From Escherichia coli (lineage in GTDB: Bacteria > Pseudomonadota > Gammaproteobacteria > Enterobacterales > Enterobacteriaceae): a DNA stretch of 64,000 bases. Shown here in pieces: positions 57,152 through 60,100 of this stretch. The stretch is taken from the NCBI RefSeq assembly GCF_965641715.1, contig NZ_OZ282453.1, one strand, 5' to 3'. Made by a program: the position numbers. Numbering within the stretch: position 1 is the first letter of the stretch; each line of letters starts with the position of its first letter.

Positions 57152-60100
57152 TAGTGACCTTCGTGGCTGTAGTAAAAGACCGGTAATCCCAGCTTAAGAC
57201 GTAGCGCCAGTAAACGGGCAAAAAAGCCGAATACCAGGGTGGAGATAATCACCACATCATGGTTAGAAACATAGTGTTGCAGCGCGATGTACAGCACGGC
57301 GGAGGCAAATGAGACACCGGCATACAACTCTTTCTGGAATACCAGAGGGATGCGTTTACAGAACATATCGCGCAAAACGCCGCCAAACACGCCGGTGGTT
57401 ACCGCCGCGACAACGGCAATAATTGGGCCGTGCCCCATATCCAGTGCAACCTGTGCGCCGATGATAGAAAAGACTACCAGTCCGAGCGCATCGAGCACCA
57501 GAAACACTTTGCGCAGGTAAGGCATTACAGGAGCAACGATAGTGGTGAGTACTGCGGCGGTAGCGACGATAATCACATATTCCGGGTGTTTGACCCAGCC
57601 AAGCGGATAGTGGCCCAGCAGAATATCGCGCACGGACCCTCCGCCAATTGCGGTGGCGGTCGCAATAATAATTACGCCAAATGTATCCATGCGCCGTCGC
57701 CCGGCCGCCAGCGCCCCCGTCATGGCTTCGGCAGTAATGCCAACCAAATACAAAATGTGTAACAGCATGGTTCTCTCCCTAAAAATCTGTCTGGCAGGGT
57801 AGCGATTTGTGCGCATTGTCACGATTGAGATTTTTTAAGGTGAGGGGAAATTGATAACTTGTAGTTATGTGAAATCGCTATTTTCTGTAGCAGAGATGCA
57901 TTCTTCTGACTTCTTGTCTGAGAAAATGCATAAGAAAAAATAGGTTAAAACTGAGGGGGGAAAAGAAAGGTGCAATATTTAGCCATTGTGTTCACTGCAC
58001 CTGGACCTTGGCTTACGCATCGGGTGTCTCAATCAACAAAAAGAGTTTTTAGTTTCTGCTATTTCTTCTCTGTAATTTTTACACTGTTTTCCAACTGCTT
58101 GATGCTGACCTGCGGGGTCGGCAACTCCTCAGGCATGGTTCCGCCAAGTTCCTGAATGGTTTGCCTCACCTTGCTACCCACGTCAAAGTGTGTGGTATTA
58201 GCTTGCTGTTTTGAATTCACGCCATCCCGCTTGAGTTTTTCTTCTGTTTGGGTAGCTCGAAAGAGATTAGCCGCCAGTTCTGTTGAACCCATATGATCCA
58301 GGATCTTCTGACCCTTTTTCAGCCCCTTCCGCTGATAAATAGCTTTCTGATCTAATCCACCATACAGCCCCGGTAACCATGATTCTGAAATATGGCGAAA
58401 TCGATAGCTGTTGCTACCCCAGCTTGCTGCGCTGCCTCAACTAATTGTTTGTTATGTTCTTTCAATTCATTTCTCAGAAAAAGACGCTTTTCGTCTTCAC
58501 GAAGTTGCCTGAAAGCTTCATCGTCAGCCAGCTCCTGCCGTCGGGTCTGGATAGCAAAATAAGTTTGTCCTGCCGCAATAACCGGTTTCGCAGGGTCGCC
58601 GTTTTGTACTACCAGGTAACAGGCATAGCGGGAGAGATGAACATCTTCAAGTTCTCGTTGAGCCCTGAACCTAATACAACCATTTTGGTGGTTTCAACGA
58701 AATGGTCAGATGCAGCTTGATTGCTGGCTTCGCACGCTTGAGTCGCGCGGGTCAGTACCTTTTGAAAACTGCGCCAGTCCCGATAATCCAGTAACGGTGC
58801 CAATTCTCTCGCTGACCAAAATTCTTGCCCTTCAGTGCCATAATGCCGTATCTCTTCAAAAGGTTGATGATGTTCGTTCATTGCCCACTCCATGTGATAT
58901 CGATTGCAAAGAAAGTAAATCTGCAACTGTATTTATATACAGTTGTGAGTATCTCACGTTCTCAGAGTGCTGGGCAAAAAACATCGCAAAATCTGGAGCA
59001 GGCACGCAAAACAGAATTGAATGTTGCGGGGAAGAAAAATGCCGCTCTGTTTGAGTGGCGGCATTTGTGAAGGCGGAAAAGTAAGAATTGGCGTTACGAG
59101 TTATTCGATGTTCTGAATCTGCTCGCGCATCTGCTCAATCAACACTTTCAGCTCGATGGCGGAGTTTGTCACTTCGGCGTTGATAGATTTCGACGCAAGA
59201 GTGTTCGACTCGCGGTTGAACTCCTGCATCATAAAGTCCAGACGACGACCAACGGCTTCTTTTTTCTTCAGAATGTTGTAGGTCTCTTTGACATGCGCTT
59301 CGAGGCGGTCCAGCTCTTCGGCAACGTCAATTCGTTGTGCCAGCAGAACCAACTCCTGCTCCAGACGGTTGTTTTCCAACTGAACCTGAGCATCTTCCAG
59401 TTTCGCGACCAGACGCTCACGCTGCCATTGCAGGATTTCCGGCATATGGGAGCGGACTTTGACCACTTCGGCGGTGACGCCTTCCAGACGCTGCTCAATC
59501 AACGCTTTCAGCGCCTGACCTTCGGTTTCGCGAGCGATGATAAAGTCATCCAGGGTGCCATCCAACGCCGCGAGAATTTCAGCGGCAATGGCGTCAAGAT
59601 CCTGCTCCTGGGCTGCCATCACGCCCGGCCAGCGCAGAATATCAACCGGGTTGATTTCCCCTTCGTCACTCTGCATTTTTACCCAGTTCGCGGCAGTTAC
59701 CAGCTGTTTAGCCAGTTTTTCGTTGAGGATCAGCTCACCTTGTGCGCTAACATCTGGCTCATAGCGCAGGGTACATTCCACTTTACCGCGCGTCAGGCGA
59801 GAACGAATACGCTCGCGAACGACAGGTTCAAGGCTACGGAACTGCTCCGGCAGACGAAAGTAAGTTTCCAGATAACGCTGGTTTACCGAGCGCATTTCCC
59901 AGGTTGCGCTCCCCCATTCACCCTTGATTTCACGCCGGGCGTAGGCGGTCATACTGCGGATCATAGACGTTCCTGTTTATAAAAGGAGAGGTGGAAGGAT
60001 TATAGCCATCGATGCCTTGTCAGGATAGGAATAACCGCCGGAAGTCCGTATAATGCGCAGCCACATTTGTTTCAAGCCGGAGATTTCAATATGCGTCCAG

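Follow-up and report, generated by a model that had tools for sequence, protein, structure and literature searches.

A dinD pseudogene with two one-base frameshifts, found as one haplotype in many Escherichia coli genomes

In a 64-kb stretch of Escherichia coli DNA (contig NZ_OZ282453.1 of the RefSeq assembly GCF_965641715.1; the whole stretch of 64,000 nucleotides is called the window here, and all positions refer to it) the SOS gene dinD cannot be read in one frame, and its LexA box is still present upstream. The question is thus whether the gene was really lost, or whether it is intact in the living strain and has been broken by sequencing errors. The original prediction, made from the sequence alone, had posed both options and leaned towards real decay. 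We found that the locus is a dinD pseudogene, and comparison with other genomes settled the question in the same direction: we are highly confident that the dinD of the window is a genuine inherited loss-of-function allele of a dispensable SOS gene.

Reading frames of the dinD locus

The dinD pseudogene lies on the minus strand at 58059..58881, between yicC (59104-59964) and yicG (57154-57768), which is the K-12 arrangement as found by tblastn of K-12 proteins. It covers 823 nt and is legible only over three frames, whereas the intact gene has 825 nt, that is 274 codons plus stop. The ATG is at 58881, preceded by the Shine-Dalgarno sequence GGAG (58888..58891, minus strand), the same as in K-12 according to the sequence and the K-12 alignment, and the native stop ends at 58059.

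Upon three-frame translation of the minus strand the DinD sequence switches frame twice, and tblastn with K-12 DinD split it into residues 1-101 (frame -2), 70-172 (frame -1) and 172-274 (frame -3). Both switches are exactly where the original prediction had placed the two one-base shifts: at GGG in 58663..58665 (frameshift 1, codon 73/74, within the Bro-N domain) and at the GGGG of CCGGGGCTG in 58368..58371 (frameshift 2, codon about 172/173), both on the minus strand. When one base was added at each site, an 825-nt frame of 274 codons ending at 58059 was restored. The repaired protein matched NF008573 (the NCBIfam / PRK11525 DinD equivalog ‘DNA damage-inducible protein D’, with a curated cutoff of 242 bits) at 496.2 bits, residues 1-274 aligning to profile positions 6-279 of 288, and the identification of the gene as dinD was thereby confirmed over its full length. 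Its residues 10-105 form a Bro-N domain (Pfam PF02498; 43.2 bits vs a gathering score of 25.6).

What can be translated from the native start is much shorter. The sole open reading frame (ORF) that begins there, at 58609..58881 on the minus strand, has 73 native and 17 out-of-frame residues, 90 amino acids in total, and ends at the stop 58611-58609. This product scored 111.8 bits against NF008573, under the cutoff, and 29.7 bits against Bro-N, where it covers profile positions 1-59 of 96 only. The two -1 deletions sum to a net -2 and do not compensate each other; no start codon of the middle frame precedes 58465, and the in-frame downstream ORFs are of 37 and 77 amino acids only. As an uninterrupted DinD frame is not present, the locus is a dinD pseudogene and not a dinD gene. 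The rest of the window had been described as intact, and this was borne out for all 29 other K-12-shared genes that were tested, each of which gave a single full-length or near-full-length high-scoring segment pair in tblastn.

Two forms of the Bro-N segment of dinD (codons about 12-85, 58637-58848 in the window) exist in E. coli. The cassette of K-12 is strongly diverged at the DNA level, with about 46% protein identity over residues 1-101, and the flanks of the cassette are nearly identical. The cassette of the window is more common: 2813 of the 5426 complete RefSeq E. coli genomes that served as our reference collection carry it. Its sharp boundaries suggest, as far as sequence comparison goes, either that it was imported by recombination long ago or that the polymorphism is balanced. 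K-12 dinD (b3645, NP_418102.2) thus occupies the same yicC-yicG slot and has an identical LexA box, Shine-Dalgarno sequence and start codon, and the repaired 274-residue window protein is 84% identical to it, codons 1-11 and about 86-274 being nearly the same; it differs in that the window copy has the two one-base deletions and a Bro-N segment from the other cassette.

This dimorphism makes K-12 a poor comparator for the first lesion. Comparison with the intact K-12 gene had been proposed as a check, and it did reveal the three-frame break, but at site 1 the K-12 cassette is too diverged to be of use. We thus relied on four intact alleles that share cassette, length and synteny with the window: A36 (WP_001445348.1), MS8345 (WP_001297973.1), SE11 (WP_001299758.1) and O157:H7 86-24 (WP_001002036.1). 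They differ from it in having one more base at each site (GGGG at site 1), and in lacking seven substitutions of the pseudogene lineage that are described below. In the alignment, site 1 has simply contracted from GGGG to GGG. At site 2, where the window has CCGGGGCTG, the intact alleles come in two types, CCAGGGGCTG (Q-G-L) and CCGGGGACTG (R-G-L); the length of the G4 run is the same in all three, and formally it is a neighboring A that was lost. The idea that both shifts fell at homopolymers therefore holds for site 1, a true run contraction, and only in part for site 2, which borders a G run whose length shows no demonstrable change.

Recurrence and history of the allele

The 1151-bp dinD locus was at least 99% identical in 119 complete genomes, and among the matches listed the identity was 100% in 30 of 30 rows. 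The carriers listed there include O145:H28 outbreak strains, ST540, KL53, AR_0061, Ecol_AZ147, CFSAN051542 and O18ac:H14 873.10, which come from many laboratories and years. An exact 71-mer over frameshift 1 was found in about 141 of the 5426 genomes, and one over frameshift 2 in 130. The two-deletion haplotype is thus present in roughly 120-140 complete genomes from unrelated projects; the carrier counts (119, 127, 130 and 141) are identity-band counts from separate queries rather than a single curated list. Both the exact 90-residue truncated product and the exact 77-residue ORF of the C-terminal fragment were each found on at least 1000 public contigs (NCBI, JGI/IMG, ENA, Logan). The same N-terminal cassette, but with GGGG, is found in about 2630 genomes, which matched the frameshift-1 71-mer at 95-99% identity (every such row that was sampled had 98.6% identity with a 72-nt span), so that the run at site 1 is not systematically miscalled.

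RefSeq itself, through the Prokaryotic Genome Annotation Pipeline, flags dinD as ‘frameshifted’ in six of six carriers that were inspected. The annotated loci I3Y_RS22695 (O145 RM9872), CPT07_RS19535 (KL53) and CF61_RS00305 (ST540) hold the same allele in a 100% identical locus, with no difference within about 1.3 kb and with flanks that differ by 1-2%. In this sense the allele is already known, as the RefSeq annotation of its carriers records the frameshift, and it is an ordinary lineage-specific pseudogene. In RM9088 the dead allele additionally holds an IS1 insertion.

In comparison to the four intact same-cassette alleles, seven substitutions are private to the pseudogene lineage. All of them are transitions; four are nonsynonymous (N38S, A44T, H183Y and S191G) and three synonymous, a pattern compatible with relaxed constraint, in a 4:3 sample that is too small for a test. 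What makes the pseudogene reading secure is the linkage, because an artefact cannot yield one haplotype together with seven linked substitutions in many independent projects. After repair of both sites, the window allele is nearest to A36, from which it differs at 9 nt, followed by MS8345 (11), SE11 (27) and O157:H7 86-24 (29).

As to the order of the two losses, a synthetic query with site 2 repaired found frameshift 1 alone in one genome, NZ_OZ197100.1, and a synthetic query with site 1 repaired found frameshift 2 alone in none of the complete RefSeq E. coli genomes. NZ_OZ197100.1 has the haplotype of the window with site 1 deleted, and a G5 form, CCGGGGGCTG, at site 2. Such a G5 run may be what is expected from a recombinant, or a double-corrected heteroduplex, of both intact types, and a slip from G5 to G4 in a form like that of NZ_OZ197100.1 would give the window allele, so the G5 form may be an intermediate. 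The likeliest order would then be that site 1 was lost first, killing the gene, and that site 2 followed later in dead sequence.

The identity between the window and its diverse carriers is sharply limited in space. It reaches 100% only between about 57.7-57.95 kb and about 59.18-59.31 kb, a tract of 1.3-1.6 kb, and just outside of this tract 11-24 single-nucleotide polymorphisms per kb separate the window from the carriers; the best match of a complete genome to the 24 kb at 36000-60000 was 99.1%. The carriers also differ from one another just upstream of the tract, with at least four different flanking haplotypes, and the frequency of the allele is low, about 2.4% of complete genomes. From these alignments, the dead allele appears as a short identical haplotype set in several chromosomal backgrounds, as homologous recombination in E. 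coli would produce. We looked for a clean import boundary in pairs of genomes (O145 vs O157, KL53 vs K-12), and the region was mosaic in every pair, with no donor or recipient definable.

Consequences of the loss and alternative explanations

The LexA (SOS) box is at 58927-58942, 45 nt upstream of the ATG, and reads CTGTATTTATATACAG on the plus strand and CTGTATATAAATACAG on the gene strand. The original prediction had pointed to a retained consensus-like SOS box, and indeed, in the alignment, the box is identical to that of K-12, as are the Shine-Dalgarno sequence and the start codon. A scan of 57800-59150 for sigma-70 promoter and terminator consensus sequences found none, so that conservation of the promoter is argued solely from near-identity to K-12. 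The pattern CTGT-N8-ACAG occurs twice in the window, the dinD box being one of the two. The other match, 32974-32989 (CTGTTCTGTAGAACAG), is within a 383-amino-acid ORF of an 18-kb insert described in the last section; it is probably due to chance, as 12 of 100 shuffled sequences gave at least two matches. In the alleles of NZ_OZ197100.1 and MS8345 we observed a variant LexA box, CTGTATATAAACACAG (T to C at the window-equivalent position 58931), and several further changes near the box in the promoter region.

Retention of the box is no evidence of selection on it. A divergence of about 0.85% predicts only about 0.14 changes in 16 bp, and therefore a young allele would keep its box regardless.

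Taken together, we propose the following course of events. Contraction of the G4 run at codon 73/74 by one base truncates DinD inside its Bro-N domain, leaving the 90-residue product, and the second one-base loss, at the G run near codon 172, would have accrued in a frame that was already dead. The locus is probably still derepressed and transcribed when LexA is cleaved upon SOS induction, because its operator, promoter region and translation signals match those of K-12. The 90-residue peptide would presumably be inactive and is likely unstable, so no full-length DinD would be made. Carriers would thus be expected to lack DinD modulation of RecA filaments, and the loss would be neutral. In K-12, DinD is reported to remove RecA filaments or to inhibit them; PMC4849656, citing Uranga et al. 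2011, counts DinD among the proteins that remove RecA filaments.

Several points weigh against this account or parts of it. The case for the window is made from other genomes, its own being outside the collection. Transcription of this allele and instability of its peptide are read from sequence. The order of the two losses depends on NZ_OZ197100.1, a single genome, whose G5 run could be an assembly error or a later slip. Finally, zero diversity over about 1.3 kb, in several backgrounds and between diverged flanks, could also stem from selection in favor of the loss, and not from neutral decay.

The last of these points has to be seen together with the variability of dinD as a whole. Some 13% of complete genomes have no dinD, and in them a different spacer, short and unrelated, links yicC to yicG in place of the interval at 57823-59100 of the window, the yicC-yicG span being 1320 bp (for example in S22EC) vs 2401 bp with dinD. 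ISKox3 is inserted in dinD of DETEC-E223 and 23GD11002. In GPEC1054, 222 bp between CAGCAAGCT direct repeats are deleted in frame, and the 200-residue product (921-1523) is annotated as intact DinD. An independent truncation of DinD to 155 amino acids is found on at least 1000 contigs. The frameshifted allele is thus one of many independent routes by which dinD was lost in E. coli lineages. According to PMC2577331, dinD is dispensable for growth, and cold sensitivity of pcsA68 is the only dinD-related phenotype cited there.

Relatives of DinD outside the E. coli chromosome point to the kind of gene that it might be. The repaired protein matched the PADLOC phage-defence candidate PDC-S13 (PDLC04919), which is a candidate defence system only, at 406.9 bits over residues 2-274, and PHROG 8036 (phrog_8036) over its full length at 362 bits, and it is 51-54% identical to proteins of Streptococcus satellite phages that are annotated as ‘DNA-damage-inducible protein D’, again over its full length. 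A DinD-domain gene inside a type I restriction-modification locus has been described as well (PMC9881135). These relatives are intact and are found in satellites, phages or restriction-modification loci; in contrast, in E. coli the gene belongs to the chromosome, is under LexA control and is dead in the window. By sequence similarity, dinD resembles a mobile-element or defence-type accessory gene, which would fit both its presence/absence polymorphism and its dimorphic Bro-N cassette; we regard this as a lead and not as a result. In the literature searched we found neither this dinD pseudogene nor PDC-S13 described. Two records named ‘Campylobacter phage’ (MG065691.1 and MG065686.1) hold a dinD of full length. 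Its product shares 83.9% identity with the repaired protein, as much as K-12 DinD does, which suggests that E. coli DNA lies within these records rather than a phage gene.

It is against this background that a selected loss has to be judged. If DinD is a RecA-filament inhibitor, or a costly gene of the defence type, its removal might have been advantageous, and positive selection might have spread the dead haplotype between lineages through homologous recombination. Such a spread would leave behind an identical tract of the kind seen here, about 1.3-1.6 kb long with no internal diversity and at least four flanking haplotypes, and the repeated independent losses (deletion in about 13%, IS1, ISKox3, the 222-bp deletion and the 155-residue truncation) agree with it, as does the kinship of the protein with PDC-S13 (407 bits) and with homologues in satellite phages and type I restriction-modification loci, given that such genes are often gained and lost. 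On the other hand, the allele has reached a frequency of only about 2.4%, a short shared tract is not unusual in a region where every pair compared was a recombination mosaic, the pcsA68 cold sensitivity is the one phenotype cited for loss of dinD (PMC2577331), the 4:3 ratio of nonsynonymous to synonymous changes comes from a sample too small to test, and recurrent loss is equally predicted for a neutral dispensable gene. We thus consider a selected loss unlikely, though it survives better than the explanations taken up below. A broader form of the same idea would be that dinD is a defence-type or mobile-element-type accessory gene which was put under LexA control, and that diverged cassettes, 13% absence and repeated inactivation reflect conflict-driven turnover, with loss favored in some niches and the frameshifted haplotype spread by recombination; to this we give a similarly small chance.

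Neutral decay of a dispensable gene, which we prefer, also has to be set against the possibility that the remnant still does something. One could imagine a stand-alone, LexA-controlled Bro-N fragment of 90 amino acids, or an SOS-induced RNA that pairs with tisAB RNA. A 16-nt stretch, CAACTGCTTGATGCTG, is present at 58092..58107 on the plus strand as a single exact match in the window, and dinD mRNA bears its complement; tisAB RNA and the 3' end of dinD have been described as complementary over this 16-nt site (PMC2577331). We also looked for tisB and its neighbors in the window and found that they lie outside of it. The idea of a working remnant draws on this preserved site, on the unaltered promoter, LexA box, Shine-Dalgarno sequence and ATG, and on the fact that the truncated product still exceeds the Bro-N gathering threshold. 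However, the fragment lacks the last third of Bro-N and ends in 17 unrelated residues, at 0.85% divergence chance is enough for elements of 16 nt and 60 nt to survive, an IS1 insertion in the allele is tolerated in RM9088, and the study that described the complementarity could show no effect of tisAB on dinD mRNA (PMC2577331). A functional remnant is thus very improbable.

Even less can be said for sequencing or assembly errors that would hide an intact gene of the living strain. Both lesions do lie at short G/C runs, where indel errors classically arise, and the reads are not open to inspection; still, runs of 3-4 bases are too short for a typical homopolymer error, the same two deletions with seven linked substitutions recur in some 120-140 complete genomes from many laboratories and years, the allele is on at least 1000 contigs, among them Logan assemblies of independent read sets, and about 2630 same-cassette genomes read GGGG at site 1. 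The population evidence, that is the recurring haplotype and the public contigs, rules this explanation out, and we leave it practically no probability.

We likewise allow next to nothing for the reading in which the shifts are functional, with programmed ribosomal frameshifting, transcriptional slippage or phase variation restoring full-length DinD in some cells: one genome has G5 rather than G4 at site 2, so that slippage occurred there at least once, unless the run was miscalled, but two separate -1 recoding events would be required for deletions that sum to -2, no X XXY YYZ slippery heptamer is present (the contexts are TCA GGG CTC and TAC CGG GGC), contingency loci and transcriptional slippage typically involve 7 or more bases, far more than the 3 and 4 G found here, about 129 carriers have the same run lengths and one differs, and the frame past site 1 closes after 17 codons. 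Recoding and phase variation are thus made very unlikely by the missing slippery motif, the short runs, the net shift of -2 and the near-invariant run lengths of the carriers.

Other parts of the window and meaning of the finding

Two genes away from dinD, K-12 offers a parallel in another gene and another lineage. Its rph-1 allele is likewise a lineage-wide one-base deletion that truncates a non-essential gene, and the K-12 gene is annotated as ‘truncated RNase PH’. In the window, rph (60091-60759) is not truncated; its alignment covers residues 1-223 of the 228-residue truncated protein of K-12.

Two other stretches of the window are absent from K-12. The larger one, an 18-kb insert between nepI and yicS (18100-36100), contains an ORF for an inverse-autotransporter/invasin-like protein of 3511 amino acids (18268-28803), a regulator with a winged helix and tetratricopeptide repeats, genes for the tip and the translocator (SipB-like) of a type III secretion system, and a tetratricopeptide-repeat chaperone, and all of its long ORFs appear open. 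It resembles the eip/eilA/air island known from enteroaggregative E. coli. The second stretch, between uhpT and adeD (5100-12090), holds four ORFs of 330-472 amino acids, and paralogue-like copies of yicN (5185-5634, 85% identity) and of yicS (11898-12215, 62%).

For the strains that carry the dead allele, the O145:H28 outbreak lineage among them, the consequence would be a life without DinD, and results obtained in K-12 with dinD-based SOS reporters or on the regulation of RecA would not be directly transferable to them. The locus is a compact case of decay of a dispensable SOS gene, in which a short recombining haplotype keeps the dead allele in circulation. The wider interest is in why dinD as a whole is so variable, a question that exceeds the present finding.

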